A DNA stretch of 64,000 nt, from assembly GCA_034521595.1 (NCBI GenBank), contig JAXHMG010000003.1, positions 2,144,001 through 2,208,000 of the forward strand. The letters are read 5' to 3'. Position 1 is the stretch's first letter, and each line of letters starts with the position of its first letter. The position numbers were made by a program, and so were the translations under genes. Below are positions 28,941 to 47,250 of this stretch, piece after piece. Below the pieces are notes generated by a model. It was not told where the DNA came from. It did no database searches and saw only the letters and a list, made by a program, of their open reading frames with translations. This DNA comes from Gemmatimonadota bacterium. GTDB taxonomy: Bacteria; Gemmatimonadota; Gemmatimonadetes; Longimicrobiales; Gaopeijiaceae.

Positions 28941-31616
28941 CTATCGCGGGCTGTCACTCTCCCACCGGACCCGCCAGAGGTCGGCCTCGGTGACGGTGCG
29001 GGAGAAATAGATCCAGCGCCCGTCCGCCGAGACGCTCCCCAGACCCAGCACATCGTTCCCGAGGCCGAAGATCTCACGGACGTCTCCCGTGCGGGTATCG
29101 GCGAGGTACAGTCGGCTCCCCCAGGCGAAGACGAGCCGGCGGCCGTCCGGAAGCCACTGGGGAGCGTCTCCGAACTCGGAGATGGTCTCCAACCCCCGGG
29201 ACGCCAGCGTGTACACAACGATGCCGCTTCCGCCGGCCGCCGGTGGAAGCACCCCGGCGATGCGAGCTCCGTCGGGGGACCAGGTGGGGCGCACCATCCG
29301 ATCACCGGGGATCAGCATCTCGGGGCCCGCGCCCTCGTCCTCCACCGATACCGCGGATACGCCCCGTCCGATCTCGACGAAGCCGACGCGCCGGCTGGTG
29401 GGCTCCCAGAACGAATAGATGGTGATCACGCTGGAAGACGTGAGACGGCGGAGGGGCACCTCCTCGAAGGCTTCGGAGACACCGACTCGTGGAGCGAGGG
29501 CGCCGGACACGAGGCCGGTGACGTCTGCCTCCCAGATTTGGTAGCCATCGCTGCGATCCGAGTGAAAGGCCAACCTGCGGCCGTCGGGGGCCCACTGAGG
29601 CGAGCGGTCGTTTCCGGCGTCGTCGGTGATACGGCGTGAGCCCGTTCCGTCGGTGGCGGCGACGTGCAGCGCCATGGGCTCTTCGAGGGTGTAGAAGGCG
29701 ACCCACAGGCCGTCCGGGGAGACCGAGGGCTCGATGGCCATCATGCCACCGGACGTGACGGGCTCGGGCGGGCCGGTGACGGAGCCGGTCTCGGGATCGA
29801 AGGGAATCCTGTGGATGTTGGAGGTGGTGAGACGCTCCACATAGAGCGCGTCACCGGTGTGCCGGGCGATGGTCGCATGCTCGTGGGATCCGGCGGCTCC
29901 GCTGGTGAGGGGTACGGCGGGCCCGAGCACACGCCTCCCCTCGGAAGCGACGGGCACCGACCAAAGGCTCCGGCTCCCCCCTCGGTCGCTCGAGAACAGG
30001 AGATGCCTGCCGTCCGCGGACCATACGGGATTCCAGTCGACCCAGCGGTCGTCCGTCATCATGACGGGATCACTCCCATCGGCGGCGATGGTCCAGATAT
30101 CCCGCTGGCTGGTGAGCCTTCCGTCCCGCATGACGCTCCAGAAGGCGATCCGCGTCCCGTCCGGCGACCAGCTGGGCTGCACCGCGTCGATGTCGCTCAC
30201 CCGCCGCTGCTCACCCGTGGCGAGATCGAAGACGAACAGGTTGCTGAGGCTGCGCCGGGTGGAGGGATCCGTGACACCCTCGGTAGCGAAGAGGATACGG
30301 CCGCCATCCGGGGACCAGACGGGATTGTACCCGAAGTTGGTGAGCCTCGCCGGAGCTCCGCCGTCCAGCTCCATGACGAAGAGCCCGCCCCCGTTCCGCT
30401 CGGAGCGGAACACCACGCTGTGGCCGTCCGGCGAGAGGGTGGGCTGGGTGTTGCCGAGGGAGGGATCGTGGGTCAGCCTCTCCTCCGTCCCGTCCACCAG
30501 GGACCTGAGGTAGAGGTCGCCACGGCGTTCGAAGACCACCGTGTCTCCGGACGCCGTGAGCGCCGGAAAGAGCTCCGGCGCCGCGTCCCGTGTGACGCGC
30601 TCGAAGGACGCCGGTGGAAGACCGGGCACCGCGGGCCGGTTCAGCACGAAGAGGACGGCCAGGGCGACGGCGGCGACCCCGAGGATGGCGAGCCCTCGAC
30701 CGTACGAGGCCCGGGGAGACCCGGATGTGGGGGCGGCGCCTTCGGCCGCGACTCCTGGAGCACCTGCCGCAGCGCCGCGGGCCTCCACCAGGGCGTCGGC
30801 GAAGGCTTCCGCCGAATCGAAGCGGTCCACCGGGAGCTTCTGTAGCGCCCGCGTCAGCACCGCGTCGACCTCGGGTGGAACCGCCTCCCTGAGCCTCCGG
30901 ACCGACGGAATCGGATCCGTCATCCGCTTGATGGTCACCATACGCGCCGTGGGACCGGTGTAGGGAGGCTCCCCCGCGAGCATCTGGTAGAGGACGCACG
31001 CCAGGCCGTAGACGTCGCTTCGCGCGGTCACGTCGTCGGCCCCGGAAGCCTGCTCCGGGCTCATGTACAGGGGCGTGCCCACGGTGATGCCCGTCGACGT
31101 GAGGGCCGCTCCACCGGCATCGTCCACCACGATGTGCGCGATGCCGAAGTCGCACACGAAGGTGCGCCCTCCCGAAAGCATGATGTTGCCGGGCTTCACG
31201 TCGCGGTGGATGACACCGGACCGGTGCGCGTGGTCCAGCCCTCGGGCAACATCCACGGCGATGTCGATGGCTTCGTCCACGGGCAGGGGACCGTCCCGCT
31301 CCAGGCGGTCTGCGAGGGTCTCGCCCGACAGGAAAGGCATGACGTAGTAGACGAGCCCATCGGCCTCCCCCGAGTCGTAGAGAGTAAGGATATGCGGGTG
31401 CTGGAGCCCCGCGGTGACTCGAATCTCGTGGAGGAAGCGCTGCGTCCCCACGGCAGCCGCTATTTCGGGGTGGAGCACCTTGAGCGCCACGTCCCGATGG
31501 TGCTTCACATCCCGAGCGCGATACACGCTCGCCATGCCGCCTCGACCGACGAGGCTGAGCTTTTCGTAGCGGCCGTCCAGAGCTCGCGTAAGTCGTTCGA
31601 GGGTCGGGTCGGTCAC
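28941..31616 (-). CDS. Hanks-type Ser/Thr protein kinase with TM helix and extracytoplasmic PD40/TolB-like propellers
   Basis: GRGGMASVY; VALKVL; IHRDVKPGNI; DFGIA; GTPLYMSPEQ; TM LAILGVAAVALAVLFVL; repeated P.WSPDG motifs. GTG start 31616 inferred. Confidence 0.92.
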   Translation of the reverse strand: MTDPTLERLTRALDGRYEKLSLVGRGGMASVYRARDVKHHRDVALKVLHPEIAAAVGTQRFLHEIRVTAGLQHPHILTLYDSGEADGLVYYVMPFLSGETLADRLERDGPLPVDEAIDIAVDVARGLDHAHRSGVIHRDVKPGNIMLSGGRTFVCDFGIAHIVVDDAGGAALTSTGITVGTPLYMSPEQASGADDVTARSDVYGLACVLYQMLAGEPPYTGPTARMVTIKRMTDPIPSVRRLREAVPPEVDAVLTRALQKLPVDRFDSAEAFADALVEARGAAAGAPGVAAEGAAPTSGSPRASYGRGLAILGVAAVALAVLFVLNRPAVPGLPPASFERVTRDAAPELFPALTASGDTVVFERRGDLYLRSLVDGTEERLTHDPSLGNTQPTLSPDGHSVVFRSERNGGGLFVMELDGGAPARLTNFGYNPVWSPDGGRILFATEGVTDPSTRRSLSNLFVFDLATGEQRRVSDIDAVQPSWSPDGTRIAFWSVMRDGRLTSQRDIWTIAADGSDPVMMTDDRWVDWNPVWSADGRHLLFSSDRGGSRSLWSVPVASEGRRVLGPAVPLTSGAAGSHEHATIARHTGDALYVERLTTSNIHRIPFDPETGSVTGPPEPVTSGGMMAIEPSVSPDGLWVAFYTLEEPMALHVAATDGTGSRRITDDAGNDRSPQWAPDGRRLAFHSDRSDGYQIWEADVTGLVSGALAPRVGVSEAFEEVPLRRLTSSSVITIYSFWEPTSRRVGFVEIGRGVSAVSVEDEGAGPEMLIPGDRMVRPTWSPDGARIAGVLPPAAGGSGIVVYTLASRGLETISEFGDAPQWLPDGRRLVFAWGSRLYLADTRTGDVREIFGLGNDVLGLGSVSADGRWIYFSRTVTEADLWRVRWESDSPR

Positions 31617-31703
31617 GGGTATGGGGTAGAGAGGGACGTCATTCTTGCAATGCGCTACCCGCACAGGGTAGCGTGGAACACACACGCTATCACACGGGAG
31701 ATC

Positions 31704-32252
31704 ATGGAGCGAGACACCGAGGGAGGGGAGGACACCGCCGTCGAACGCTTGCTCCCGATGGTTTACGACGAGCTGCATCGGCTCGCCCACGCGGCCATGC
31801 GCGGTGAATCCACCGGCCACACGCTGCAGACCACGGCGCTGGTGCACGAAGCCTACGTGCGGCTGGTGAGCGCGGATCTCGAGTGGGAGGGATCCGCCCA
31901 CTTCCTGAGGATTGCCGCCCGCGCCATGCGCAGGGTTCTGGTGGATCACGCCAGGGCTCGGAAGGCGGCGAAGCGAGGAAGCGGGGCTCCGGTGATGCTC
32001 CTGGACGCTCTGGAGGGTGTGGTCGCCACCGACTCCCGTCCCGACGATGTCCTCGCCCTCGATGACGCCCTCGAGCGTCTTTTTGCGCTTGATGAGAGGA
32101 AGGGGCGCATCGTGGAGCTCTGTTACTTCGGAGGGCTCACCTACAACGAGATCGCAGACACACTCGACGTGTCCGCGGCCACGGTGCACCGAGACCTCCG
32201 CATGGCGAGGGCGTGGCTATATGATGAGCTTCGAGACGACGAGGGATCCTGA
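31704..32252 (+). CDS. ECF sigma factor of the kinase-associated type (TIGR02999/ECF43-like)
   Basis: LLPMVYDELHRLA; HTLQTTALVHEAYVRL; HFLRIAARAMRRVLVDHARARKAAKRG; LALDDALERL; IVELCYFGGLT; VHRDLRMARAWL. The true start may be up to about 18 codons earlier. Confidence 0.92.
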   Translation: MERDTEGGEDTAVERLLPMVYDELHRLAHAAMRGESTGHTLQTTALVHEAYVRLVSADLEWEGSAHFLRIAARAMRRVLVDHARARKAAKRGSGAPVMLLDALEGVVATDSRPDDVLALDDALERLFALDERKGRIVELCYFGGLTYNEIADTLDVSAATVHRDLRMARAWLYDELRDDEGS

Positions 32253-32508
32253 GCGTTTCCGCCTCCTGAACCAGCTGTTCGAGATCCTCCTCCGCACCCA
32301 TCCGGCCCGCTGGGACGAGGTCGTGGCCGACCGGGCCCTCGACCCGCGCCTGGCCGCGGAGGCCCGAAGACTCCTCGTGCTCGACCGGTCCGGGGCACCT
32401 GATCGATACCTGAAGCATCTGGTCACCACGGCCCAGGCAGTGGTGAGAACGGAGGCGCTGGAGACGGACGGAGCCTGGCCCACCGGGAACCGATCCGAGC
32501 ACACGTGA
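32221..32508 (+). CDS. Small protein resembling the pre-kinase N-terminal helical segment of ECF43-linked kinases
   Basis: DPERFRLLNQLFE..L...PARW......DPRLAAEARRLL parallels the TPERW..I..LF..AL..P..R......D..L..EV..LL segment; overlaps the sigma 3' end; no kinase domain follows. Confidence 0.55.
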   Translation: MMSFETTRDPERFRLLNQLFEILLRTHPARWDEVVADRALDPRLAAEARRLLVLDRSGAPDRYLKHLVTTAQAVVRTEALETDGAWPTGNRSEHT

Positions 32509-32612
32509 GGGGATTCAGCCGGGTTTGACGCCTGTTGATGTGAATACCCCGGCCATGCCGGGCGAGCATCGATCCTGCCGGCACGGCCGGCGTCAACATC
32601 CGGAGTCATCTC

Positions 32613-34634
32613 ATGAGTCACTCACGTCTGCCCCGGGCACGGGCCTTCGCCTTCGCCCTGATCGCCGGCCTGATGTCCGCCTGCGGAGGAAGCGAGGCGC
32701 CGGCCTGCAGCCCCACGGATCCCGGATGCGATGCCGGTGACGGAAATGGGGACGGCAATGGCAACCCGACTGCCCTCGCGGTGACGCAGGTCTCGCCCAA
32801 CGACGGCACGACGGGCGTCGCGACGGACGCCGCCGTCACCATCACGTTCTCGCGCGCCGTAGCCGCGGCCTCGGTCACGTCGACGTCCGTCACCGTCGGG
32901 TCGCTGGCGGGGACCCGGGACGTGAGCGGCTCCACCGTCACGTTCACACCCGACGACGCCATGGCGGAAGCGACGAGCTACACCGTCTCCGTGACCGGCG
33001 TCACCGACGCCGACGGCGTGGGACTCGACGGGGCGTTCAGCTCGTCGTTCACGACGGTATCGAGCCCGGCTATGGCCGACGCGGGTCCGGACGTGAGCAT
33101 TACCGCCGGCGCCGAATCGACCCTCGACGGGAGCGCCAGCACCGGGTCGGGCGCGACCTACACGTGGACGGTGCTCGAAGGCCCCAGCGTGGGATCGCTC
33201 AGCGGCGCCACGCCGACCTTCACAGCGCCGGACGAGATCGGGAAGATGGTGGTGGAGCTGAGCGTCTCCGGTGGCTCGGGCTCGGACGCGGACACGGTGC
33301 AGGTCTGGATCCTCGAGGACGCGGACCACGCGCTGTGGGTGAGCCCTGCGGGCTCCGACTCGAATCCCGGCACGCGTGAGGCGCCGATAGCCACGATCCA
33401 GGCGGCCATCGACGCGGCGGACGGCGCCGGGAACGGCGCGGACGTCTACATCGCCGGCGGTGAGTACATGGAGTCCGTCACGCTCCGGTCGCGGGTGAGC
33501 CTCTACGCTGGCTGGGACGAGGCCGACTGGTCCCGGAACATCGAGACGCGCCGAGCGGTGGTGCGCGGAGGCGCCACGGCCGTCCAGGGCACGGAGTCCA
33601 ACAACCTGGTGCTGGAAGGCCTGGAGGTCATCGCGGCAGACGCCACGGATCCGGGCGAGAGCTCCGTCGCGGTGTGGCTGCTGAACTCCACCGGCGTCGA
33701 CATCCGCAGAAACATCATCCGTGCGGGCGCCGGGGCCATGGGGGTGTCCGGGACCACGCCGAACCGGACCCGAACCGGATCCACCGGCTCACGGGGCGGC
33801 AATGCGCGGTTGTGTGTGAGCCGCACGTCCGGAGGATCGGGTGGCTCGAATTACCGGAGCGGTGGCAACGGCGGTCTCGGTGGCGGCACCAACCCCACCG
33901 GAGGATCGTCGGGCTCGACGTCCAACGGTGGTGGCGGGGGAAGTGCCGGGACGTCGGGTTCCAAGAACGGCGGACGCGGTAGAACCGCCGCGACGACTGG
34001 ACCCGTGGGCGGAAACGGCGCCGCCGGATCCGCGTTCGGAGCCATCAACGAGAGCGGTGAGTACGTCGCGGAGGCTGCGGGCGGCAACACGGGCACCAAC
34101 GGCAGTGCGGGCTACGGCGGTGGTGGTGGCGGCGGCGCCTACGGCCTGGTGGGTCTCTGCGGCGGCAGCGGCGGCGGGGGGGGTGGCGGCGGCGAGGGCG
34201 GCCAGCCCGGCACCGGTGGCATGGGCGGCGGCGCCTCCTTCGCGGTGCTGGCGGTGGGTCCGGGCTCGATCTCCATCGGGGACAACGAGCTGCACACCGC
34301 GGACGGCGGTGTGGGCGGCCGAGGAGCGACCGGAGGCGCCGGTGGCTTAGGCGGGTCCGGAAACGTGGGCGGGACCCGGGGATGCGACTCCCTATTCCCC
34401 TCCATCTGCACCGGTACGGGCGGTCGGGGTGGGAACGGCAGTGCCGGCGGGCGGGGCGGACATGGCGGCGGCGGCGGCGGCGGTCCGAGCATCGCCGTCA
34501 TCGAGGGCCCGACGACCACCATCACGTTGAGCGGGAACACCTTCATGCTCGGCGAAGGCGGGGCCGGAGGCCCGAGCTCCGGCAACAGCGGCCCAGCCGG
34601 CGAAGCCGCCGAGCAGAAGAAGCTCACGCCGTGA
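32613..34634 (+). CDS. Surface lipoprotein: Ig-like (Big_5), PKD-like and DUF1565-like domains plus a long Gly-rich region
   Basis: Lipobox LMSAC; VSPNDGTTGV..ITFS; ADAGPD..TLDGSAS..YTW; WVSPAGSDSNPGTREAPIATIQAAI; GGxGG repeats with scattered Cys. Confidence 0.85.
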   Translation: MSHSRLPRARAFAFALIAGLMSACGGSEAPACSPTDPGCDAGDGNGDGNGNPTALAVTQVSPNDGTTGVATDAAVTITFSRAVAAASVTSTSVTVGSLAGTRDVSGSTVTFTPDDAMAEATSYTVSVTGVTDADGVGLDGAFSSSFTTVSSPAMADAGPDVSITAGAESTLDGSASTGSGATYTWTVLEGPSVGSLSGATPTFTAPDEIGKMVVELSVSGGSGSDADTVQVWILEDADHALWVSPAGSDSNPGTREAPIATIQAAIDAADGAGNGADVYIAGGEYMESVTLRSRVSLYAGWDEADWSRNIETRRAVVRGGATAVQGTESNNLVLEGLEVIAADATDPGESSVAVWLLNSTGVDIRRNIIRAGAGAMGVSGTTPNRTRTGSTGSRGGNARLCVSRTSGGSGGSNYRSGGNGGLGGGTNPTGGSSGSTSNGGGGGSAGTSGSKNGGRGRTAATTGPVGGNGAAGSAFGAINESGEYVAEAAGGNTGTNGSAGYGGGGGGGAYGLVGLCGGSGGGGGGGGEGGQPGTGGMGGGASFAVLAVGPGSISIGDNELHTADGGVGGRGATGGAGGLGGSGNVGGTRGCDSLFPSICTGTGGRGGNGSAGGRGGHGGGGGGGPSIAVIEGPTTTITLSGNTFMLGEGGAGGPSSGNSGPAGEAAEQKKLTP

Positions 34635-34674
34635 CCCGACGCGTTCCTGAGTTCCGGGGGGCGGCATGCTCCCC

Positions 34675-34726
34675 GGGACGCCCATCCCGAGCATCATTTC
34701 GGGACGCCCATCCCGAGCATCATTTC
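34675..34726 (+). repeat. Perfect 26-bp tandem duplication
   Basis: gggacgcccatcccgagcatcatttc twice, immediately before the GGAG RBS of the cytolysin-like gene. Confidence 0.95.
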
Positions 34727-34737
34727 CGGAGCACCCC

Positions 34738-37143
34738 ATGAGTAAGCATCTCAGAACCAGCTGGAGAGCCATTCTCGGCGCCCTCCTGCTCCTCTCCATC
34801 CCCACCGCCTGCTCGGAGAGTCCGACGGACCCCGGCGACGGCAACGGAATCGCCGACCAGAGCGTCAGCGACTACATGCAGAGTCTGGGGTCGTGGGCGG
34901 CATTCGCCCCCTCCGAGCCCGACCAGCCGCCCACCGCTACAGGAGACCCGGTGGAGCTCCCCCCGGACACCCTCAACGTTCCGGAGGTGGTGGAGGATGA
35001 GGATGGCAGCGCCCGGGTGGAGGTGATCCCGAACGTGGTCTATCAGTGCACGGAGACGCCACACACCCTGACGAAGAACCCGCAGCAGATCGTCATGTAC
35101 AACCCCGACCGCGAGATCCTTTGGGCGGGGTCCCTCATCCAGGGCCGGAGCCACCGGGACGGACGGGGGGCGCTTCTCGGCCTCACCATCGCCGAGCGGA
35201 CACCCATCCAGGTGTCGATCCCCGATCTACCCACGGGCGCCAACTTCCGTGAGGTGGCGAATCCCTCCCTGGCCACCGTGGAAGCAGCCGTCGGAGAGAT
35301 GCGCGGGAACGCGACCGTCTCGGGACTCGCCGCCCCCTCCACCATCACATTCCGACAGACCGTCTCCCACTCGGAGCGGCAGTTCGCGCTCTCCGTGGAC
35401 GTCTCCGGGCACTACATGGGCTTCTCGGCGGCGGCCAGCGCCGACTACAGCAGGAACGCGTCCGAGACCACCATCACCGCCCACTTCTTCCAGCGGATGT
35501 TCGAGGTGGTGGTGGCGCCCCCGCAGACCCCCGGGGCCTTCTTCAGCGACACCTTCACCCAGGAGAAGCTCCAGCAGCAGGTCGACCTCGGGCGCATCGG
35601 GCCGGACAACCTCCCTGTCTACGTGTCGAACATCGTGTACGGGCGCATGATGACGTTTTCCATTACGTCCAGCGCCAGTGAGGAAGAGCTCCGCGGCACC
35701 TTGCAGGCGGCGTACAACAGCATCGGCGGCGGGGCCGAAGCCTCCATCTCCGCGAAGCAGAGGACCATCCTCCGGGAATCGCGGATCTCGGTGACGTCGC
35801 TGGGCGGACCGGCGGAGGCCACCCTCGCGGTGATCCGCTCCGGCGACTGGTCCCGGTACTTCACCGACGACGCGCCCATCTCCAGCGCGGCGCCCCTGTC
35901 CTACACCTTCAGGAATCTGTCCGACGGCAGCATCGCCTCGGTGACCGAGGCCACGGAGTACAACCTGAAGGAGTGCACGCCCCGCCCGTCGAGTCCGGGT
36001 CTCTTCGATTTCGCGTCGCTCCAGGCCACCAGCCTGGGGATCCCCACACCGGTACGTACGCGCATCGCCGACATCGACGGCGACGGCGACGGCCGCATGG
36101 ATATGGTGTGGAACCACATGGGCGCGACGAACCAGGTGGTCGTGGGCCTGTCCAATGGCGATGGGACCTTCGACATGATGTCTCCGGTGACGCATCCCGA
36201 GAGCCCGGTGGAGGGGTGGGCCAACTACGAGACCGTGGTGGGCGACTTCAACGGCGACGGCACCTCCGACCTGGGATGGGCCTATGCGGGAACGGCCGGG
36301 AACAAGGTCTATCTGGGCCTGGGGAACGGTGACGGGAGCTTCGGCACACCGAGCGTGCGGATCCTGGGGACGACGAACGTCACCGGGTACGAGGCGCTGA
36401 CCGGCGACGTGAACGGCGACGAAGACGACGACCTGATCTTCAATCGGCGGGGTGGGACGTACAACGACGTCTACACCGCCGTCTCCGACGGCTCCGGGAA
36501 CTTCAGCCTGACCGCGGTTCGCAGGCACCCCAACACGAGAGGATGGCCTACCTTCGATCCGTTCGTGGGCGACGTGAACGCGGACGGCCGCGCCGACCTC
36601 CTATGGGCGAGGTTCAACCGCTCGTACTTCGCGCCCGGCAACATCGATGGGACGCACAGTCTGCCCTCGACCTTCTACGATCCGCCCAGCACCGGCGCCT
36701 CGTTGCCCGTGCGCGTGGCGGGCGACGTCGACGGTGACGGCCGCACGGACCTCGTCTGGGCCGACACGACCACCGCCGGCACGAATGGCGTGGTGGTGGG
36801 CCGCTCCACGGGCACCGGTATCTCGTTCCTGTCCCGCACCGACGGAAACCTGCAGAACGGAGTGCCCCTCAGCGTGCGCTCCGGCGACATCAACGGAGAC
36901 GGCCGGGCCGACCTGCTCTGGAACACCCAGGGCGCGGTGAACCGGGTGTATGGAAGCCTCGGTACCGCCAGCGGCGGGCTCGACTTCTCACCGGCCAACC
37001 AGCTCCACCCGGTGTCCACCGACTGGGATCAGTTCACCGTGTACCTCGCCGATGTGAACGGCAACGGCAGGCAGGACGTGATCTGGAACCATGCCGCGTC
37101 CGAGAACCGCATCTACGTGGGGATCTCGAGAAGGCAGAACTGA
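34738..37143 (+). CDS. Thiol-activated/cholesterol-dependent cytolysin-like lipoprotein with C-terminal FG-GAP repeats
   Basis: Lipobox IPTAC; ILWAGSLIQG..ERTPIQVSI.DL; V.NPS...V..AV; F.QRMFEV.V.PP..PGAFF...PVYVSNIVYGRM; LGG; PLSYTFRNLSD. Then seven or more (G)D.NGDG..DL.W repeats. Confidence 0.85.
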   Translation: MSKHLRTSWRAILGALLLLSIPTACSESPTDPGDGNGIADQSVSDYMQSLGSWAAFAPSEPDQPPTATGDPVELPPDTLNVPEVVEDEDGSARVEVIPNVVYQCTETPHTLTKNPQQIVMYNPDREILWAGSLIQGRSHRDGRGALLGLTIAERTPIQVSIPDLPTGANFREVANPSLATVEAAVGEMRGNATVSGLAAPSTITFRQTVSHSERQFALSVDVSGHYMGFSAAASADYSRNASETTITAHFFQRMFEVVVAPPQTPGAFFSDTFTQEKLQQQVDLGRIGPDNLPVYVSNIVYGRMMTFSITSSASEEELRGTLQAAYNSIGGGAEASISAKQRTILRESRISVTSLGGPAEATLAVIRSGDWSRYFTDDAPISSAAPLSYTFRNLSDGSIASVTEATEYNLKECTPRPSSPGLFDFASLQATSLGIPTPVRTRIADIDGDGDGRMDMVWNHMGATNQVVVGLSNGDGTFDMMSPVTHPESPVEGWANYETVVGDFNGDGTSDLGWAYAGTAGNKVYLGLGNGDGSFGTPSVRILGTTNVTGYEALTGDVNGDEDDDLIFNRRGGTYNDVYTAVSDGSGNFSLTAVRRHPNTRGWPTFDPFVGDVNADGRADLLWARFNRSYFAPGNIDGTHSLPSTFYDPPSTGASLPVRVAGDVDGDGRTDLVWADTTTAGTNGVVVGRSTGTGISFLSRTDGNLQNGVPLSVRSGDINGDGRADLLWNTQGAVNRVYGSLGTASGGLDFSPANQLHPVSTDWDQFTVYLADVNGNGRQDVIWNHAASENRIYVGISRRQN

Positions 37144-37146
37144 CGC

Positions 37147-38631
37147 TCATCGACCCGCGGCGCCAGGGAAGCGCCCGTCGGGTGTGTCCCTATCCGTGAC
37201 GAGCCGACCGCCCTCCCCGAGCGCCGTGGCCGGCAGATAGACCCCCTCCGGGGTGCGCAACCACCAGGCGCCCGTCTCACGCCGCTCCGCCGGCGTGGTG
37301 AACCGGTAGCGCCAGAACCCGGCCCGGATCCAACGGGGCGGCCCCTCCGGGAACGGATCGCCGGCCATGAGGGCGAGGGTGGCCGATTCGCCCTGGAGGA
37401 GCTTCCGGATCAGCGGGACGAACCAGTGCTGGTGCGCCGGCGGCGAGAGGGGCACGAACCACAGCAGCCAGTCGAGGCGCAGGTGGTAGGGCGCCACCTG
37501 ACGCGGTCGCCGCAGCGGGTCGCCGGGCTTGGCCTTGAACGTGTACGGCCGCCACGTCGCCGTCTCCGGGTCGTCGTCCCGGGTCCCTTCGATCACCAGC
37601 TCGTGGCGCGTGCGCGTCACGCTCCCGAACGCCCCGTACGATCCCACGAGATGGAACGGGTTGTAGTGCACGTTCATGCGTTGGCGGCGCGAGACGAGGT
37701 TGCGCACCGGCCGCCAGCTCAGGACGAGCACCACGAGCCCGACCACCACGGTCAGGGCGAAAAACCCCACCGGGAGCGCAGCCTCCACCGGCGGCGTGCC
37801 CGGGAGCACCGGCGCGAGCCACCCGTCCGGAACCGCCGAGAACGCCAACACGAGCGTGAGCGCGTTCAGCCACGCGAAGTTGCCGGAGAGGAGGAGGTAG
37901 CTCTGCGTGAGCACGATCAGGCAGGCGGCCGCCCCGGCGACGGGCTGCGGAAGGAAGAGCGCGAAGGGCGCGGCGAGCTGGGTCAGGTGATTCCCCGCCA
38001 CCTCGAGGCGGTGGAGCGGCTTCGGGAGGTGGTGGAAGTACCAGCTCAACGGGTTCGGGATCGGCTGGGTCTCGTGGTGATAGTCGAGACAGGTCAGGTC
38101 CCTCCAGCACCGATCGCCCCGCAGCTTGATGAGCCCCGCCCCGAGCTCCACACGGAAGAGCAGCCAGCGGAAGCAGAAGATCGTGATCACGGGCGGCGCG
38201 AGGTGGGCCGGGCCGAGGAACGCCGCGAAGAAGCCCGCTTCCAGCAGGATCGACTCCCATCCGAACGAATAGAACGTCTGACCCACGTTCACGATCGAGA
38301 GGTAGAGCGCCCAGAGGGCGAGCCAGACCGCCACCCCGACCCACACCGAAGCCCGCTCCGGAAGCCCCGCGATCACCGCGGCCGACAGCAAGATCCCTAT
38401 CCAACACACGCCGGCGAACAGCCGATCCGAGTAGCGAAGGTGGAAGAGCGACGGCGCTTGCTTCCACGACACCCGCGCCAGAAACCGTGGCACGGGAAGC
38501 AGACCCCGAGCCCCGATCAGCGCCCGGAACTGGTTGAGCGCCGAGACGAAGGCGATCAGGTAGACGAGGCCGAGGCCCCGGAGCAGGACCAGACGACCGA
38601 GCGCGTAGTCGGGAGCGGTGAAGACGTCCAT
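37147..38631 (-). CDS. Lipase maturation factor (LMF) family membrane protein
   Basis: RGLGLVYLIAFVS; LYLSIVNVGQTFYSFGWESILLEAGF; RWLLFR..GAGLIKLRGD.CWRDLTCL.YHHETQP.PNPLSW; YGAFGSVT; APYHLRLDWLLWF. Confidence 0.93.
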   Translation of the reverse strand: MDVFTAPDYALGRLVLLRGLGLVYLIAFVSALNQFRALIGARGLLPVPRFLARVSWKQAPSLFHLRYSDRLFAGVCWIGILLSAAVIAGLPERASVWVGVAVWLALWALYLSIVNVGQTFYSFGWESILLEAGFFAAFLGPAHLAPPVITIFCFRWLLFRVELGAGLIKLRGDRCWRDLTCLDYHHETQPIPNPLSWYFHHLPKPLHRLEVAGNHLTQLAAPFALFLPQPVAGAAACLIVLTQSYLLLSGNFAWLNALTLVLAFSAVPDGWLAPVLPGTPPVEAALPVGFFALTVVVGLVVLVLSWRPVRNLVSRRQRMNVHYNPFHLVGSYGAFGSVTRTRHELVIEGTRDDDPETATWRPYTFKAKPGDPLRRPRQVAPYHLRLDWLLWFVPLSPPAHQHWFVPLIRKLLQGESATLALMAGDPFPEGPPRWIRAGFWRYRFTTPAERRETGAWWLRTPEGVYLPATALGEGGRLVTDRDTPDGRFPGAAGR

Positions 38632-40851: not shown

Positions 40852-42399
40852 TTGGGCATGCAACGGATGATCCAGCGCAGAGCGGCCGATGTGCTACCCA
40901 TCGGGATTCTTTGCGTGTGGATTACCGTCGGCGCCTGCAACGATGACGAGACCACTCCGCCGGTGGGCCCTCAAGGCCCTGATACCGTCGTCGACTCCAT
41001 CAGCCTCGAGCCACCCGAGCGAACCATCGGTGTCCTCGGAGCACAGATCGGAGTCCGAGCAGCAGCGCTCAACAAGGACGGCGAAGCCCTCTACCGCTCG
41101 CCGCTGGATCCCGGCCGGTTCTCATGGTCATCCGCCGCGCCCGACATCGCGACCGTGGGCCCGGATACCCTTATCCACAACGATGCGCATCTCCGCTTGG
41201 TCGAAGGTATGGGTGAAGGTCACACGACCATCACGGCGAGCAGTCAGGGTGTCACCGGCAGCATGACGGTCCACGTGTGGGATCGCGCACGTCTCGCGTG
41301 GTCTGTTCCGCGAGACACCGGATCGACGCTGGCGGGATCGATGCTCGCTGGTGTCGCGATCGGACCCGACGGCACCATCTACGTCGGGACGAACAACCCG
41401 CTCGCGGACCGAAGTGTCTGGCGCGCCCTCTCGCCGCAGGGAGCTGTCCGCTGGACCCGCGACCTCCCGCTCACGGACTTCTCGACGCCAGCCATCGGAG
41501 ACGACGGAACGCTGTATATCGGCTCCAGGTCCGCGAACGGCTCAGCCGGTCGCCTGATCGCCGTGGATCCCGGCGGCACGGTCCGGTGGATGCTGGAAGA
41601 TGTCGCCGAAATCCGATCCTCTCCGGCGATCGGGCCGGACGGCACGATCTACGCGGCCGGCGGTCGCCATGTCTACGCGGTCGACCCACGCGGCGAGATC
41701 CGGTGGACGTACGAGGTCGACGACGACCTTTTCGTCTTCTCCTCGCCAGGGGTCGCGAGCGACGGCACGGTCTACGTAGGTGGCGCGGACAACCTCCTGT
41801 ATGCGATCCACCCCGACGGCTCCCTGCGGTGGAGGTTCGAAACCGGCGATGTCATTCAGTCCTCTCCGTCGATCGGCATGGACGGGACCATCTACGTCGG
41901 CTCCCTGGATGGTCGGCTCTATGCCGTGGGTCCCGACGGGACCGAGCGATGGAGCGTGGAGCTGGACTGGAGAGGGATCAGCTCCTCGCCGTCGATCGGG
42001 CCGGACGGCACGATCTACGTGGGAGCCGGCGGCGTGTTTGCCGTCGATCCCGGCGGCTCGGTCCGCTGGAACTATGCGCCATCCGGTTGGGTCTCGACCA
42101 CACCGCTCCTGGGGGCGGACGGAACCGTTTACGTTGGCGCTTGCTGCGGTATCACCGCTCTCGACACCCAGGGCAGGCTTCTGTGGGACTACGGGACCGG
42201 TGGAACCATCATGGGCTCGCCCGCCATCGGTCTCGATGGTGCGATCATCGCGGGTTCCTTCTCGCAACCCTCCCCAGACTCATGGGAAGGCACCGTCCAT
42301 GCAATCGTGGAGACCACATCGACGAACGGCGGCTACGAGGGCGCGCCCTGGCCGACGACGCGCGGGGGGCGCGCCAACACCGGCCGGGCTGGCGGATGA
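40852..42399 (+). CDS. Lipoprotein with Ig-like domain and PQQ-like beta-propeller repeats (module 1)
   Basis: AGGAGG RBS; lipobox VGAC; Ig segment ending GHTTITAS; repeated SSP.IG.DGTIYVG...LYA..PDG...W; C-terminal PWPT.RG.RANTGR. Confidence 0.88.
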   Translation: MGMQRMIQRRAADVLPIGILCVWITVGACNDDETTPPVGPQGPDTVVDSISLEPPERTIGVLGAQIGVRAAALNKDGEALYRSPLDPGRFSWSSAAPDIATVGPDTLIHNDAHLRLVEGMGEGHTTITASSQGVTGSMTVHVWDRARLAWSVPRDTGSTLAGSMLAGVAIGPDGTIYVGTNNPLADRSVWRALSPQGAVRWTRDLPLTDFSTPAIGDDGTLYIGSRSANGSAGRLIAVDPGGTVRWMLEDVAEIRSSPAIGPDGTIYAAGGRHVYAVDPRGEIRWTYEVDDDLFVFSSPGVASDGTVYVGGADNLLYAIHPDGSLRWRFETGDVIQSSPSIGMDGTIYVGSLDGRLYAVGPDGTERWSVELDWRGISSSPSIGPDGTIYVGAGGVFAVDPGGSVRWNYAPSGWVSTTPLLGADGTVYVGACCGITALDTQGRLLWDYGTGGTIMGSPAIGLDGAIIAGSFSQPSPDSWEGTVHAIVETTSTNGGYEGAPWPTTRGGRANTGRAGG

Positions 42400-44861
42400 G
42401 GCGCCGGCCTTCCTTCGCGGTCGCCACCTTGGCGCTGCTCCTAGCCACCAGCCTCGCGCCACGCCATTGGGCGCTCTTGGCGGCTCCCCTCGGCGCACAG
42501 GAGCCCGAGCCGCCGGCCGTGCCCTCCGGCTCCGCGGTCGTCACGGGCAAGGTATTCGGCGAGGAGGTGGAGGTGGCGGTCCGCTCGGCCGAAGTCACCC
42601 TCCACCTCGCGGACGACTCGACCTTGGTGGGCACGGCGGTGACCGACACCCGGGGCCGCTTCCGCATCGAGGACGCCCCGGAGGGCACCTTCTTCGTCCG
42701 GCTCCGGAGCCTGGGGTACGGGACCGTCGCCACCGAGCCCTTCGAGGTGGCGGCCGCGGAGGTGCGGGCGCTGGGCGAGCTCCGGATGCCGGTCGACGCC
42801 CTGGAGGTCGACCGGGTCACGGTCTCGACCGAGCGCTCCGTCGTCACCCACGAGGCCGACCGGGACGTCTACAACGTCGGCGTGATGCCCGGCACCGGGG
42901 GCGCCCCGGTGACCGAGACCCTGTCGCGGATCGCCGACCTCCAGGTGGACATCGACGGCCGCGTCACCCTCCGGGGCCAGGGCGTGACGATCTACATCGA
43001 CGGCCGCGATGCGCCCCTGTCCGGCGAGACGCTGACGCTCTTCATGGAGCAGTTCCCCTCGGACCTCATCCAGGAGATCGAGGTGATCCACAATCCGCCG
43101 GCCCGCTACGACGCCGAGGGCACCGGCGGGATCGTGAACCTGGTGACGCGGGAGGGGGTCGAGCTCGGCGTGAGCGGGACGGTGTTCTCCCGGGCGGACA
43201 CCCGGGGCCAGTACACGGTCGGCGGGCACGGCGTCTTCCAGCGGGGCGCGTGGACCGTGAACGGCCGTGGCTCCGTGGGGCTCTCGGACCGAGAGCGCAG
43301 CGACTACCAGCTGAGGCAGAACCTCGACGTGGAGCCGGCTTACCTGCGGCAAGACGCGTGGTCGGATCGCTCGGGCCTCTCCACCAGCGGAAACCTTGAG
43401 GTCGCCTACGAGCCGACGGAGCGCGCGCGGCTCTATCTGGAGGGTGGAGCCTGGCGCTCCGGCCATGACCAGGAGGGCGCCACGACCACCACGCACTTGG
43501 CCGACCTGGAGACGCCGATCCTGGCCTACGACCGCTCCCGCGCCTCGGACTCCCGGAGCCTCAACTTCGACCTCGCCACCGGCTTCCAGCGGTCATGGAC
43601 ACGCGCCGACCAGGAGCTGGAGGTGGAGGTGGCGCTGGAGCGGGGCCGGGACCGACAGGAGCGCCGGGAGGAGGTCACCGACGGCACCGGACTCGAGGGC
43701 GACCAGCTGATCCCCGCCGAGCTCACCCTGGAGGACGAGAACGAGCTGGAGACCGCCCTGTCCGGCCAGGCGGACTACGTGCGGGCGTGGGGCGAGGACG
43801 CCGAGATCGAGCTGGGCTACCAGGGCGAGCGCACGGAGGCAGACCAGGACCGTCTGCTCCGCTTCGTGGAGGACCCCGGAACCGCCACCGACGAAGGCAT
43901 CGAGCGCGGCCACCGGGTGCGGGAGCGGAGCCACGCCCTTTACGGCACCGTGGAGCGGCGCCTCGGGCCCGCGAGCGTGCAGGTCGGGCTCCGAGCCGAG
44001 ACGGCCGCGCTCGACTTCGAGTTGCCGGACGGACGCACCTTCGACAACCGCTACCTGAACCTCTTCCCCAGCGCCAACGTCTCGTACCGGATCGACGACG
44101 AGCGCCGCCTCCGGATCTCCTACTCCAGGCGTGTGAACCGTCCCGGGCTCTCGGTGCTGAACCCCGTCGACACCTCCACCGACCCCCTGGAGCGGCGGGT
44201 CGGGAACCCGGACATCGAGCCGCAGCTCACGCACCGCCTCACCATGAGCGCGACCTGGTCCACCTCCACCGGCAGCCTCCGGCTCTCGCCCCATCTGAGC
44301 GCGACCCGGAACGGCTGGTCCCGCCTCACCACCGTGGACGATCGCGGGGTCTCGACCCGGACCTACGGCAACGTCACCTCGCGGGAGAGCTACGGCGCGT
44401 CGCTAAGCTACCGGATCCACCGGTGGCACGGCTGGGCCGGCGACGTCTCCCTCTCTGCCCGTCGGCAGAACCGGGACGCCAGCAACCTGGAAGAGCGGTA
44501 TTCCGGGACTGCGACCCGCCTCTCGAGCCGCGTCAACATCGACGGCCGCGTCACCGACGACTTCCGCGTCCAAGGCAGCTTCTCCTACCAGCCGGGACAG
44601 GACCTGCCCCAGGGCCGCACCGACGCCCGCATCCGGGCCGACTTCGGCGCGCGCTACCGCCTCCTCGACGATCGGGCCTCGGTCCGGCTCTCGCTCCGCG
44701 ACCCCTTCGCCCTCCAGCAGTCCTCGAGCCGGCTCCGGGACACCGACTACGTCCTCATCGGACGAAGCCAACAATCGACCCGGAGCGCCCAGATCAGCGT
44801 GTCCTACACGTTCGTGAGCGGCGGGGCGTCGAGGGGCGGCCGCAGGCGCGGACGGCCTTAG
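42396..44861 (+). CDS. TonB-dependent receptor (outer-membrane beta-barrel family 3 type) with carboxypeptidase-regulatory-like N-domain (module 1)
   Basis: ATGA overlap with the upstream stop; signal peptide; VDIDGRVTLRG..V.IYIDGR; IQEIEVIHNPPARYDAEG.GGIVN; LFPSA; SYSRRVNRP..LNP..GNPD..P; SVSYTF. Confidence 0.88.
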   Translation: MRRRPSFAVATLALLLATSLAPRHWALLAAPLGAQEPEPPAVPSGSAVVTGKVFGEEVEVAVRSAEVTLHLADDSTLVGTAVTDTRGRFRIEDAPEGTFFVRLRSLGYGTVATEPFEVAAAEVRALGELRMPVDALEVDRVTVSTERSVVTHEADRDVYNVGVMPGTGGAPVTETLSRIADLQVDIDGRVTLRGQGVTIYIDGRDAPLSGETLTLFMEQFPSDLIQEIEVIHNPPARYDAEGTGGIVNLVTREGVELGVSGTVFSRADTRGQYTVGGHGVFQRGAWTVNGRGSVGLSDRERSDYQLRQNLDVEPAYLRQDAWSDRSGLSTSGNLEVAYEPTERARLYLEGGAWRSGHDQEGATTTTHLADLETPILAYDRSRASDSRSLNFDLATGFQRSWTRADQELEVEVALERGRDRQERREEVTDGTGLEGDQLIPAELTLEDENELETALSGQADYVRAWGEDAEIELGYQGERTEADQDRLLRFVEDPGTATDEGIERGHRVRERSHALYGTVERRLGPASVQVGLRAETAALDFELPDGRTFDNRYLNLFPSANVSYRIDDERRLRISYSRRVNRPGLSVLNPVDTSTDPLERRVGNPDIEPQLTHRLTMSATWSTSTGSLRLSPHLSATRNGWSRLTTVDDRGVSTRTYGNVTSRESYGASLSYRIHRWHGWAGDVSLSARRQNRDASNLEERYSGTATRLSSRVNIDGRVTDDFRVQGSFSYQPGQDLPQGRTDARIRADFGARYRLLDDRASVRLSLRDPFALQQSSSRLRDTDYVLIGRSQQSTRSAQISVSYTFVSGGASRGGRRRGRP

Positions 44862-45681: not shown

Positions 45682-47250
45682 ATGCAAGAGTCCAGCCACC
45701 GCCGAGCCACGACGGTTCTGCCGGCCCTGCTCCTATCCGCGGGGCTCATCATTGGCGCCTGCCGTGATGATACAATCACTCCGCCCGTCGACTCCGAGAG
45801 TCCCGACACGGTCCCCAGTTCACTCAGGATGCGGCCAGCGGAGCAGTTGACCGTAGGTATGCTCGGCATCAGTGCCGTGCGGGTGGGAGCAGAGGCGTTG
45901 TCCAAGGACGGCGACATCCTCTACCGCTCGTGGCTGGACCGCGACCGTTTCGTTTGGTCGGTCTCCGACCCCGACATCGTGACGCTGACCGACACCACCT
46001 GCCTACCGACCGGTCGTCGCTGCCGCCTAATCACTAGTGTAAGCGAGGGCGAAGGGACCATCACCGCGACGACGCAAGGCCTGACCGACTCCATATCAAT
46101 CACCGTGCGAGATCGTGCACGTGTCGCATGGTCTGTTCCGATCGGACTCGGGAGGAGCTTCTCGGACGTTGCCGTCGCAATTGACGGCACTATCTACGTC
46201 GGCACCGATGAGCCCGCTCTAGCTCGAAGCCGCTGGTCCGCCCTTTCGCCGCAAGGAGGCGTTGTTTGGACGGTGGACTTGCCCCTCACATTTAAGTCAA
46301 GTCCCGCTATCGGGGAGGATGGGACGCTCTATCTCGGGTCCAGGTCCGCGGGCGCTGATGGTTCTGTGGGTCGCCTGATCGCCGTAAACCCCGGTGGAAG
46401 CGTGAGGTGGATGCTAGAGGGGATCGATGGTATTCGCTCGTCGCCATCAATCGGACCGGATGGAACCGTATATGTAGCTGGCGAGCGCCACATCTACGCA
46501 GTCGATCCGCAAGGAGAGATCCGTTGGGTTTACGAGGCCGCCAGTGACGTATTCGCCTTCTCCTCCCCGGCGGTCGCGGGTGACGGTACGATCTACGTAG
46601 GCGCGGAGGATTATCACTTATATGCTATCAATCCAGACGGCTCCTTGCAGTGGAGGTTCCAAACCGATGACCGGATTCGATCCTCTCCGTCCATCGGCCC
46701 GGACGGAGCCATCTACGTTGGGTCGCACGACGGAAGGCTCTACTCCGTTAATCCCGACGGGACCGAACGATGGAACATCCCAATCCATTGTGGCCTCGAC
46801 TGGGGCTGCGAACCGATTCAATCAACGCCTTCCATCGGCGTGGATGGTACGATCTACGTAGGAGCCGACGCCATATATGCCATCGATCCCGCGGGCTCGA
46901 TTCGCTGGAGCCTACTCGGTGGCGGGGTCGTCTGGACTCCGGTCGTGGGCGCAAACGGGACGATATACTTCACCGATCTCTCTACACCCGTCGGCGGGAA
47001 GCTCTACGCCGCCGACGCCCAGGGCAGGATTCTGTGGGAGTATCCAACCGGTGGACGGGTTTCCGCTTCACCGGCCATCGGCGTCGATGGCAGTATCATC
47101 GCGGTTTCCTTCGGGGGTTCCTCAGGGTCGGGCGATGAAGGTCGGGCTCATGCGATCATCGAGACCGTCTCGACGAACGGCGGTTATGCAGGGTCACCCT
47201 GGCCGACAGCGCGTGGTGACCGAGGCAACACCGGGAGGGCCGGTAGATGA
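45682..47250 (+). CDS. Lipoprotein with Ig-like domain and PQQ-like beta-propeller repeats (module 2)
   Basis: Lipobox IGAC; same architecture and motifs as 40852 (DRAR.AWSVP, GRLIAV.PGG.VRWMLE, STNGGY.G.PWPT.RG.R.NTGRAG); visibly more A/T at third codon positions. Confidence 0.88.
   Translation: MQESSHRRATTVLPALLLSAGLIIGACRDDTITPPVDSESPDTVPSSLRMRPAEQLTVGMLGISAVRVGAEALSKDGDILYRSWLDRDRFVWSVSDPDIVTLTDTTCLPTGRRCRLITSVSEGEGTITATTQGLTDSISITVRDRARVAWSVPIGLGRSFSDVAVAIDGTIYVGTDEPALARSRWSALSPQGGVVWTVDLPLTFKSSPAIGEDGTLYLGSRSAGADGSVGRLIAVNPGGSVRWMLEGIDGIRSSPSIGPDGTVYVAGERHIYAVDPQGEIRWVYEAASDVFAFSSPAVAGDGTIYVGAEDYHLYAINPDGSLQWRFQTDDRIRSSPSIGPDGAIYVGSHDGRLYSVNPDGTERWNIPIHCGLDWGCEPIQSTPSIGVDGTIYVGADAIYAIDPAGSIRWSLLGGGVVWTPVVGANGTIYFTDLSTPVGGKLYAADAQGRILWEYPTGGRVSASPAIGVDGSIIAVSFGGSSGSGDEGRAHAIIETVSTNGGYAGSPWPTARGDRGNTGRAGR

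Follow-up and report, generated by a model that had tools for sequence, protein, structure and literature searches.

The 64,000-nucleotide stretch of Gemmatimonadota DNA analysed here (contig JAXHMG010000003.1 of assembly GCA_034521595.1, positions 2,144,001 to 2,208,000 of the forward strand; hereafter the window) contains a gene, at window positions 34738 to 37143 on the + strand, whose product joins the pore-forming core of the cholesterol-dependent cytolysins (CDCs) and CDC-like proteins (CDCLs) to a lectin-type FG-GAP beta-propeller. The architecture, fold and motifs of the protein, the homology of its propeller to lectins, its solo status in the genome and the linkage of its gene to sigma factor and kinase genes were established by computation. 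On balance we think it probable that the protein is a single-gene, lectin-targeted beta-barrel pore former of the CDC/CDCL superfamily, under sigma/kinase control. A first-pass annotation of the window had proposed a pore-forming toxin with a targeting propeller, and the fold, the hairpin pattern and the lectin homology support that interpretation; pore formation, the ligand and the calcium dependence of binding are the parts of it that we infer.

The open frame extends from 34666 to 37143 on the + strand, and translation from the ATG at 34738 gives an 801-amino-acid protein. The N-termini of 65 aligned relatives match this start. The signal peptide ends in the lipobox LLLSIPTAC, and since its Cys25 is invariant in 65/65 relatives and the N-termini match, the gene product is very probably a signal peptidase II (SPII) lipoprotein, which bears out the lipoprotein signal of the first-pass annotation. 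A 26-bp unit is perfectly duplicated in tandem at window positions 34675-34726, 12-63 nt upstream of the ATG, and creates the longer frame from 34666; this duplication was not seen upstream of the gene in L003, one of the closest related loci. No unusual RNA structure was found in the 5' region 34625-34745 (z -1.22). Horizontal transfer was also considered, and composition gave no sign of it, the GC content of the gene (~0.69-0.70) being similar to that of its flanks.

Residues 40-418 correspond to CDC domains 1-3. Thiol_cytolysin (PF01289) matched residues 108-408 with an E-value of 7.4e-24 and 84.7 bits, against a cut-off of 25 bits, over positions 46-345 of the 353-position profile. A phmmer search of PDB sequences matched 28 CDC/CDCL chains, with E-values of 7e-16 for intermedilysin, 4e-14 for perfringolysin O (PFO) and 2e-12 for pneumolysin, and of 9e-9 and 2e-4 for the Elizabethkingia CDCL short and long proteins. 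An AlphaFold2 model based on the 65-sequence alignment had a mean predicted local distance difference test (pLDDT) score of 83.5 and a predicted template modelling score of 0.61, and its Foldseek match to pneumolysin had an E-value of 3e-22. With VIA-align, model residues 36-416 were superposed on pneumolysin chain residues -1 to 356 (Z 27.4, root-mean-square deviation (rmsd) 3.4 Å, 339 aligned) and model residues 40-416 on PFO chain residues 35-389 (Z 24.9), whilst CDCL short gave Z 21.2 (259 aligned) and CDCL long Z 20.2. The match to CDCs spans domains 1-3 and ends where domain 4 would begin. The pneumolysin alignment begins at model residues 35-37, about 12 residues past Cys25, which leaves no room for a long pro-region, and none is evident in the model. 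A two-copy complex prediction for residues 40-418 scored 0.00 and speaks neither for nor against self-assembly.

Domain 4 itself was not recovered. The Pfam scan contained no CDC domain-4 family and, beyond PF01289 and the FG-GAP-type repeats, no family at E ≤ 1; the undecapeptide and the cholesterol-recognition Thr-Leu pair are missing along with domain 4, as residues 419-801 are propeller in both the Pfam scan and the structural alignment. An NCBIfam scan of the protein gave sub-threshold noise only. A TcdB_toxin_midN match (3e-6) falls on the FG-GAP repeats, and was taken as a repeat cross-match and not as a relation to Tc toxins. Thus the profile and PFO comparisons suggested in the first-pass annotation recovered both thiol-activated cytolysin and FG-GAP matches, the CDC fold on which it had staked its reading of the N-terminal half is present there in the model, and the undecapeptide is missing as it had stated.

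Its list of CDC signatures held in part. YGR (residues 301-303), GG (356-357) and PLSY, a PxSY segment (386-389), were confirmed; the FF at residues 250-251 is not the motif, and Met254-Phe255 aligns in its place. The two transmembrane-hairpin regions that it had expected were detected in column hydrophobicity across the 65 sequences, with an alternating hydrophobic/polar pattern at the CDC hairpin positions. In the first, hydrophobic positions alternate at 216/218/220/222 and 229/231/233/237; in the second, they alternate at 318-326 and 333-339, flanking a Gly-rich turn. Segments 210-243 and 312-348 thus show the pattern expected of the two CDC transmembrane hairpins. To obtain residue equivalences, HMMER alignments were combined with PFO numbering taken from an alignment in the supplement of PMC7527733, and by these the equivalent of PFO Tyr181 is Phe205, invariant or nearly so in the 65 relatives. 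Separately, Cys104 (35047-35049) and Cys413 (35974-35976) are invariant in 65/65 relatives and sit, in the model, in two long strands of domain 2 near the propeller junction, where they may form a disulfide that is absent from classical CDCs.

The motifs that define CDCLs, according to Evans et al. 2020 (PMC7527733), are F/Y-F/Y-Xn-YGR and a Gly-Gly pair without an undecapeptide, the first F/Y-F/Y position being aromatic in only 62% of CDCLs. The present protein has M254-F255...Y301-G302-R303 and G356-G357, with Met in the first position, and two amphipathic domain-3 segments at 216-237 and 318-339 in the 65-sequence pattern. Judged by sequence, it therefore falls within the published definition of a CDCL. 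With the classical CDCs pneumolysin, PFO and intermedilysin it shares the domain 1-3 fold (Z 24-27, ~330-340 aligned), PF01289, YGR, Gly-Gly, two amphipathic hairpin regions, PxSY and the lack of an evident pro-region. Unlike them it has no domain 4, undecapeptide or cholesterol-recognition pair, it is a lipoprotein of a diderm bacterium, it has Met first in the F/Y-F/Y motif, and the positions of PFO Glu183, Phe318 and Lys336 are changed.

In place of domain 4, residues 419-801 form a seven-repeat propeller of 383 amino acids, close to the ~390 residues of FG-GAP repeats first thought to follow the core. Its pLDDT in the AlphaFold2 model is mostly >90, and Pfam matched it to FG-GAP_3 (PF13517, 1.1e-31, five stretches) and FG-GAP (PF01839, 7.6e-17). 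The calcium-type motif D-x-[DN]-x-[DN]-[GE]-x-x-D is found in 7/7 blades, from residues 447, 503, 557, 612, 663, 717 and 772; these motifs are conserved across the family and look structural rather than ligand-binding. Three of the seven inter-blade segments carry a second motif, HP..(G/D)W..[YF], at W494, W603 and W763, of which W494 and W763 are invariant and W603 is conserved in at least 90% of the 65-sequence alignment.

A profile built from 19 propeller sequences was searched against PDB sequences. The best match was UmbA4 (5e-26), followed by PVL (5.6e-17), PAL (2.2e-16), AAL2 (8.2e-16), CRTAC1 (3.9e-12) and integrins (~1e-6). VIA-align of the propeller gave Z 26.4 for AAL2 and Z 26.1 for PVL (~330 aligned, rmsd 3.2-3.4 Å, 20% identity), Z 20.6 for UmbA4 and Z 17.6 for integrin alpha-V. 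E-values of 5e-26 for UmbA4 and ~1e-16 for PVL and AAL2, against ~1e-6 for integrins, indicate that the propeller is homologous to propeller lectins and nearer to them than to integrins, whose kinship, at ~1e-6 and Z 17.6, is at superfamily level. The earlier description of the propeller as lectin- or integrin-like is thus sharpened to lectin-like.

The family motif HP..eGW..Y aligns onto NNFCIGAGGW..SAH of PVL, placing the conserved family Trp on the Trp that contacts N-acetylglucosamine (GlcNAc) in PVL and AAL2. The GlcNAc pocket of AAL2 consists of Asn104 (Asn/Asp in every blade, and essential), Trp112 and His117, according to PMC4483166. The pockets of the present propeller appear, from this alignment, to be homologous in place to those of the GlcNAc lectins and chemically different from them, and a glycan ligand is likely. 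With the fungal GlcNAc lectins PVL, PAL and AAL2 it shares the seven-bladed fold, profile homology and the aligned pocket Trp; unlike AAL2, it has the motif in 3/7 segments compared to 6/7 sites, and calcium motifs in seven blades compared to two bound ions. UmbA4, from a Streptomyces umbrella toxin (PDB 9oee), is the nearest PDB sequence relative and is itself a toxin-aiming lectin: PMC13274773 describes its propeller as binding teichuronic acid, a cell-surface glycopolymer, for species-specific targeting of umbrella toxins. The UmbA4 propeller, described as 6-bladed, makes up its own subunit within a particle of several proteins and serves to deliver enzymatic toxins, whereas the present one has 7 blades and is fused directly to a pore former.

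The protein belongs to a large family. With the full protein as query, a word-indexed search scored 8000 proteins, of which 584 reached E ≤ 1e-3; 120/120 of the matches listed had both PF01289 and PF13517, with lengths of 552-846 amino acids (most ~785-846) and identities of 46-100%. A query with the core only found at least 496 proteins (90%-identity clusters) at E ≤ 1e-10, with FG-GAP in 119/120 of the matches listed, among which core identity was 58-93%, so that the core is more conserved than the whole protein. Against a 50%-identity library the core matched 2207 clusters at E ≤ 1e-3, 1414 at E ≤ 1e-10 and 358 at E ≤ 1e-30. Members already carry the database label 'thiol-activated cytolysin family protein'.

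To this pore core other modules are also attached. We scanned with Pfam 65 representatives drawn from the 150 best core matches, after dropping 11 short or fragmentary rows and five already seen; six long rows from further down the list were included, which biases the sample to unusual architectures. FG-GAP was found in 32, PF01289 alone was recognised in 22, and the other 11 carried ricin-B (1), Laminin_B (2), ConA-like Laminin_G_3 (2), MVL (1), tectonin (1), PD40 (1), SLH/Ig/PKD (2) or fn3 (1). The pore core in this clade is thus joined to exchangeable modules, several of them of carbohydrate-binding families, with FG-GAP the commonest.

Relatives were located at 109 places in genome contigs, of which 79 loci were kept. 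By record title these belong to Gemmatimonadota, Calditrichota, Rhodothermales/Balneolales, Bacteroidota and Krumholzibacteria, with further loci in a Fibrobacteraceae metagenome-assembled genome (MAG), Nannocystales/Myxococcota and some Gammaproteobacteria. The closest named relatives (79% identity) are in MAGs labelled Longimicrobiales and Gemmatimonadota, and one cultured species, Rhodohalobacter mucosus, is named among the carriers. In its own phylum the gene occurred in 6/201 sampled genomes, the window's own included, and in 5/99 genera, and it was absent from 23/23 other sampled genomes of its own family; transfer and loss are both compatible with this patchy distribution. Ten loci (L046, L057, L070-L075 and L077-L079), mostly Burkholderiales-type, match the core only, and the four open reading frames (ORFs) scanned from core-only loci have a different C-terminus, with weak Laminin_B-like matches in three. 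In the Burkholderiales-type cores of L070, L074 and L077, the weak Laminin_B-like region ends in a conserved RASYPV...GY(V/I)GGYFDE.

The genome (3.49 Mb, 93% complete) contains only one PF01289 match, in agreement with the first-pass annotation that only one such gene is present. Adjacent long and short CDCL genes were not found, the flanking genes encoding an Ig/PKD lipoprotein and an LMF1 homolog. The likeness to Bacteroidota CDCL pairs that had been drawn is therefore partial: the SPII lipoprotein character is shared, whilst no pro-region is evident in the protein and no partner gene was found in the genome. The Bacteroidota two-component CDCL data set spans 117-674 amino acids (PMC11169675), which places the ~800-residue class outside it. 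CDCLs (PMC7527733, PMC11169675, PMC11952106) share with the present protein the motif and Gly-Gly pair, the lack of an undecapeptide, an SPII signal and a C-terminal 'binding' domain of non-CDC type. Unlike the two-component CDCLs, this one is a solo gene of ~800 rather than 117-674 residues with no evident pro-region; its C-terminal domain is a recognisable lectin-type propeller where theirs is unclassified; and it is linked to an ECF43 sigma factor and a kinase where Bacteroidota CDCLs have a BcdI-type immunity gene. The Rhodohalobacter and Salisaeta CDCLs seen in the alignment of PMC7527733 have a short non-FG-GAP C-terminus, unlike the protein here.

The regulatory neighbors of the gene are a sigma factor and a divergently encoded Ser/Thr kinase (Table 1). 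PF07638, the family of this sigma factor, we take to be group ECF43. The two neighbor genes gave matches to PF07638 (1.8e-50) and Pkinase (8.4e-46), and the DNA encodes LQTTAL; the hallmarks of ECF43, as set out in PMC13147305, are a QTTA motif in region 2.2 and an adjacent Hanks kinase gene. A sigma gene of this type lies ≤5.5 kb from the gene in 26/69 FG-GAP loci, with a kinase match also in 22/26, and it was found in 15/25 FG-GAP loci flanked on each side by 5 kb or more, and in 0/10 non-FG-GAP loci. Strong PF07638-type sigma matches number 2 in the window's genome and 9, 2, 5, 2 and 1 in five other carriers (4.2-11 Mb), and in each of these six genomes checked, one such sigma adjoins the toxin gene; by our own arithmetic the chance expectation of one at a given locus is ~0.2-3%. 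PMC13147305 describes EcfP-PknT of Vibrio parahaemolyticus and EcfK-PknS of Xanthomonas citri, which have in common with the present pair a QTTA sigma beside a Ser/Thr kinase. The ECF43 regulons described there are polymyxin resistance and a type VI secretion system protecting against amoebae; here the linked gene is a CDC-like toxin, and our literature search found no report of such a toxin as an ECF43 target.

A bipartite motif, TTTCGCCAGTT-N13-TGCGCGTA, precedes the gene by 38-176 nt in loci of Balneolales type and in some of Bacteroidia type. Sixteen such sites supplied a matrix that was scanned over the 79 loci (822 kb, both strands), giving 31 sites in 19 loci (L016, L027, L028, L031, L034-L037, L039, L041, L042, L044, L045, L050, L052-L054, L057 and L058), 15 of which had not been used in building it. 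Of these independent sites, three precede further FG-GAP toxin genes, three precede second CDC paralogs and seven are upstream of the kinase gene; of the other two, one precedes another gene and one is weak. The seven kinase sites are on the opposite strand, six of them between the sigma and kinase genes. The motif looks like an ECF-type promoter common to toxins and kinase, and is a candidate for ECF43 dependence. A relaxed -35/-10 pattern matched the window four times, never ahead of the operon, and gave no consistent position across 22 other loci. Sigma-70-like promoters were absent from 31400-37400, where 0.4 were expected. The sequencing runs listed as carrying the gene were two DNA runs of one study, and none was of RNA. 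A different element, the tandem TGTCCACC-N3-TGTCCACC, precedes the toxin gene by ~80-200 nt in loci of Bacteroidales type that have no sigma gene (L014, L015, L020, L022, L023, L025, L026, L029, L038, L040 and L056, with TGTCCAG/TGTCCAT in L040 and L056), and may be the site of a different regulator.

Several findings count against a lectin-targeted, sigma-controlled, single-component pore former. In the core, the PFO Glu183 position is Gln207 (Met or Gln in the family), that of Phe318 is Ile350, that of Phe230 is Met254 and that of Lys336 is Ser368, which the conserved Arg367 adjoins; with these positions changed, the assembly trigger must, by this alignment, differ in detail from that of the CDCs. 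In the propeller, the essential Asn/Asp of the AAL2 pocket aligns with His486, the AAL2 His aligns with Tyr or Phe, and the Trp motif is retained in only three of the seven segments, so that GlcNAc specificity is not supported. The sigma gene is absent from 10/25 FG-GAP loci with full flanks, and the Balneolales-type motif was not found in the window (position weight matrix, threshold 12) or in other high-GC loci, so for this gene it is synteny, and gene neighborhood only, that suggests sigma control. A second CDC-core gene is nearby in 12/79 related loci, and co-operation between paralogs occurs or is possible in other lineages. Our literature search found no experiment on any family member.

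The replaced AAL2 residues leave some room for an integrin-like propeller that binds protein or peptide, or lipid directly, such that targeting would not be via glycan; Pfam names the repeats FG-GAP, and the integrin alpha propellers are detectable relatives in both structure and profile. We regard this as unlikely, as the lectin propellers score far better (5e-26 and 1e-16 vs 1e-6), modules of families named as carbohydrate-binding (ricin-B, ConA-like, MVL and tectonin) occur on the same core in sister proteins, and the lectin-pocket Trp is invariant at two of the three sites that retain it and nearly so at the third.

Still less probable is a two-component, complement-like CDCL system of the kind known from Elizabethkingia and Bacteroides, in which the protein would serve as the membrane-binding 'long' subunit and would need proteolytic activation and a second, unrecognised pore subunit. 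Like the Bacteroidota CDCLs (PMC11169675), the protein is an SPII lipoprotein, it matches both CDCL structures clearly, and a minority of related loci do have the second CDC-core gene counted above. Against this, its own genome has a single PF01289 match, although at 93% completeness a partner could have been missed, and the paralogs elsewhere are long and not short forms: six second genes that we examined are lipoprotein-like ORFs of 594-855 amino acids with C-termini of their own, Laminin_G_3 in two (L030 and L032), FG-GAP in one and none recognised in three. Moreover, the core is nearer to classical CDCs (7e-16, Z 27, 339 aligned) than to CDCL short (9e-9) or long (2e-4), and the pneumolysin alignment starts so close to the lipid Cys that no pro-region is evident. 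FG-GAP propellers often act in adhesion, and the upstream neighbor is an Ig/PKD-type surface lipoprotein and some CDC trigger residues are changed; even so, a non-lytic surface protein (an adhesin, or a matrix or envelope component) that merely retains a CDC-like fold is the least probable reading, as a core 58-93% identical across phyla, with YGR and GG invariant and alternation kept in both hairpin regions, is hard to explain without the refolding mechanism.

For a single-component, lectin-targeted pore former we propose the following sequence. The protein would be exported by Sec/SPII and lipidated at Cys25, after which it would be exposed on the surface of the cell or of vesicles, or shed from either. 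In CDCs the N-terminus sits atop domain 1, remote from the end that binds the membrane; by analogy, tethering through a short lipidated N-terminus would leave the propeller pointing outward from the producer membrane. The propeller would then bind a surface glycan of the target cell via the inter-blade pockets marked by Trp494, Trp603 and Trp763; once there, monomers would assemble into oligomers and, as in CDCs, refold their two domain 3 helical bundles into a beta-barrel. The toxin probably acts as a single component, as no other CDC-family gene was found in the genome and no N-terminal pro-region is evident. Expression is probably under the neighboring ECF43-type sigma factor, which the partner Ser/Thr kinase, with its PD40 sensor region, would activate.

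As to the target, we give a competing bacterium and a eukaryotic grazer roughly the same likelihood. By analogy, a bacterial target would be favored by UmbA4 as the nearest solved propeller relative and by the killing of bacteria by Bacteroidota CDCLs (PMC11169675). A grazer would be favored by the nearness of the core to classical CDCs, by the lack of any immunity gene conserved across phyla beside the toxin gene in the 79 related loci, and by the Xanthomonas ECF43/kinase pair, which controls anti-amoeba defense (PMC13147305).

Table 1. Features of the gene, its product and the regulatory neighborhood, in window coordinates.
Feature	Position	Strand	Basis
Predicted signal peptide with lipobox LLLSIPTAC, Cys25	34738..34812	+	Translation; Cys25 column invariant 65/65
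CDC/CDCL pore-forming core, residues 40-418 (CDC domains 1-3)	34855..35991	+	PF01289, phmmer, AlphaFold2, VIA-align
Predicted transmembrane-hairpin 1 region, residues 210-243	35365..35466	+	Alternating hydrophobicity, between model strands 202-209 and 244-259
Met254-Phe255, position of the CDC F/Y-F/Y motif	35497..35502	+	HMMER alignment with intermedilysin YY and anthrolysin FY; M254 invariant
YGR motif, residues 301-303	35638..35646	+	Invariant 65/65; motif defined in PMC7527733
Predicted transmembrane-hairpin 2 region, residues 312-348	35671..35781	+	Alternating hydrophobicity, between model strands 293-311 and 349-355
Gly356-Gly357 pair, start of alpha-beta loop	35803..35808	+	Invariant 65/65; CDC role in PMC7527733
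Seven-bladed FG-GAP/VCBS beta-propeller, residues 419-801, replacing CDC domain 4	35992..37140	+	Pfam, blade analysis, model
Hanks-type Ser/Thr kinase with C-terminal PD40 (TolB-like) propeller region, exact start not settled	28941..31580	-	Pkinase 8.4e-46, PD40 1.9e-42
ECF43-type sigma factor, QTTA motif (LQTTALVHEAY), start codon not settled	31704..32252	+	PF07638 E 1.8e-50
95-amino-acid ORF overlapping the sigma stop codon	32221-32508	+	63-81% identical to sequence at the corresponding site in L002 and L003
673-amino-acid lipoprotein, Big_5 and PKD-like domains, Gly-rich C-terminal region	32613..34634	+	Pfam

Among the other neighbors, the 95-amino-acid ORF may be a small partner of the sigma/kinase module. 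The gene for the 673-amino-acid lipoprotein may be co-transcribed with the toxin gene, no + strand terminator having been found between the two; it is beside the toxin gene in 6/79 loci by tblastn, all of them Gemmatimonadota-type, and as a candidate immunity protein it was set aside for this limited conservation. Downstream, and convergent with the toxin gene with 3 nt between the stop codons, an LMF1 homolog is encoded at window 37147-38631 on the - strand (LMF1 1.4e-60, LMF1_C 3.6e-45). The lipase maturation factor family is known mainly from eukaryotes, and the homolog was beside the toxin in 0/79 related loci. Further along, at 40852-44861 and 45682-50228 on the + strand, are two successive pairs of genes, each encoding a PQQ-like/ACSF4-type beta-propeller protein and then a CarboxypepD_reg outer-membrane barrel or TonB-dependent receptor, in what looks like a duplicated uptake module.

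Among the papers listed by the literature search, none combined a CDC/CDCL core with FG-GAP, VCBS or a propeller. Nor did we find in print the class with an FG-GAP/lectin propeller, how large and widespread it is, the set of alternative lectin modules borne by the core, or the ECF43/kinase link. The CDCL family has already been noted for diverse binding domains in PMC7527733; of six taxon names sought in the part of its supplementary text that was available, only Rhodohalobacter was present, and its species list (Fig. S4) could include members of this family. CDCLs are the largest group of the CDC/MACPF superfamily, and even for the two systems studied their receptors are unknown, according to PMC11169675 and PMC11952106. 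A recognisable lectin-type propeller with candidate pockets makes that receptor question directly testable, and the cultured carrier R. mucosus makes experiments feasible.

The ricin-B, ConA-like, MVL and tectonin modules on close cores suggest a general rule, that of a CDC pore aimed by exchangeable lectins in environmental bacteria. The sigma/kinase link hints at deployment of the toxin on an outside cue and, with the promoter-like motif in one clade, would give a poorly understood signaling family a defined output. We put forward more tentatively, as a possibility that we hold with some doubt, that these proteins constitute a large multi-phylum family of single-component CDCs in which lectin propellers replace sterol recognition and an ECF43/kinase pair is the switch, acting as an inducible weapon of environmental diderm bacteria against grazing protists or competitors. 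If this is true, the CDC pore would be a general, glycan-programmable weapon, used outside the Gram-positive pathogens and equipped with a dedicated signaling module and promoter.

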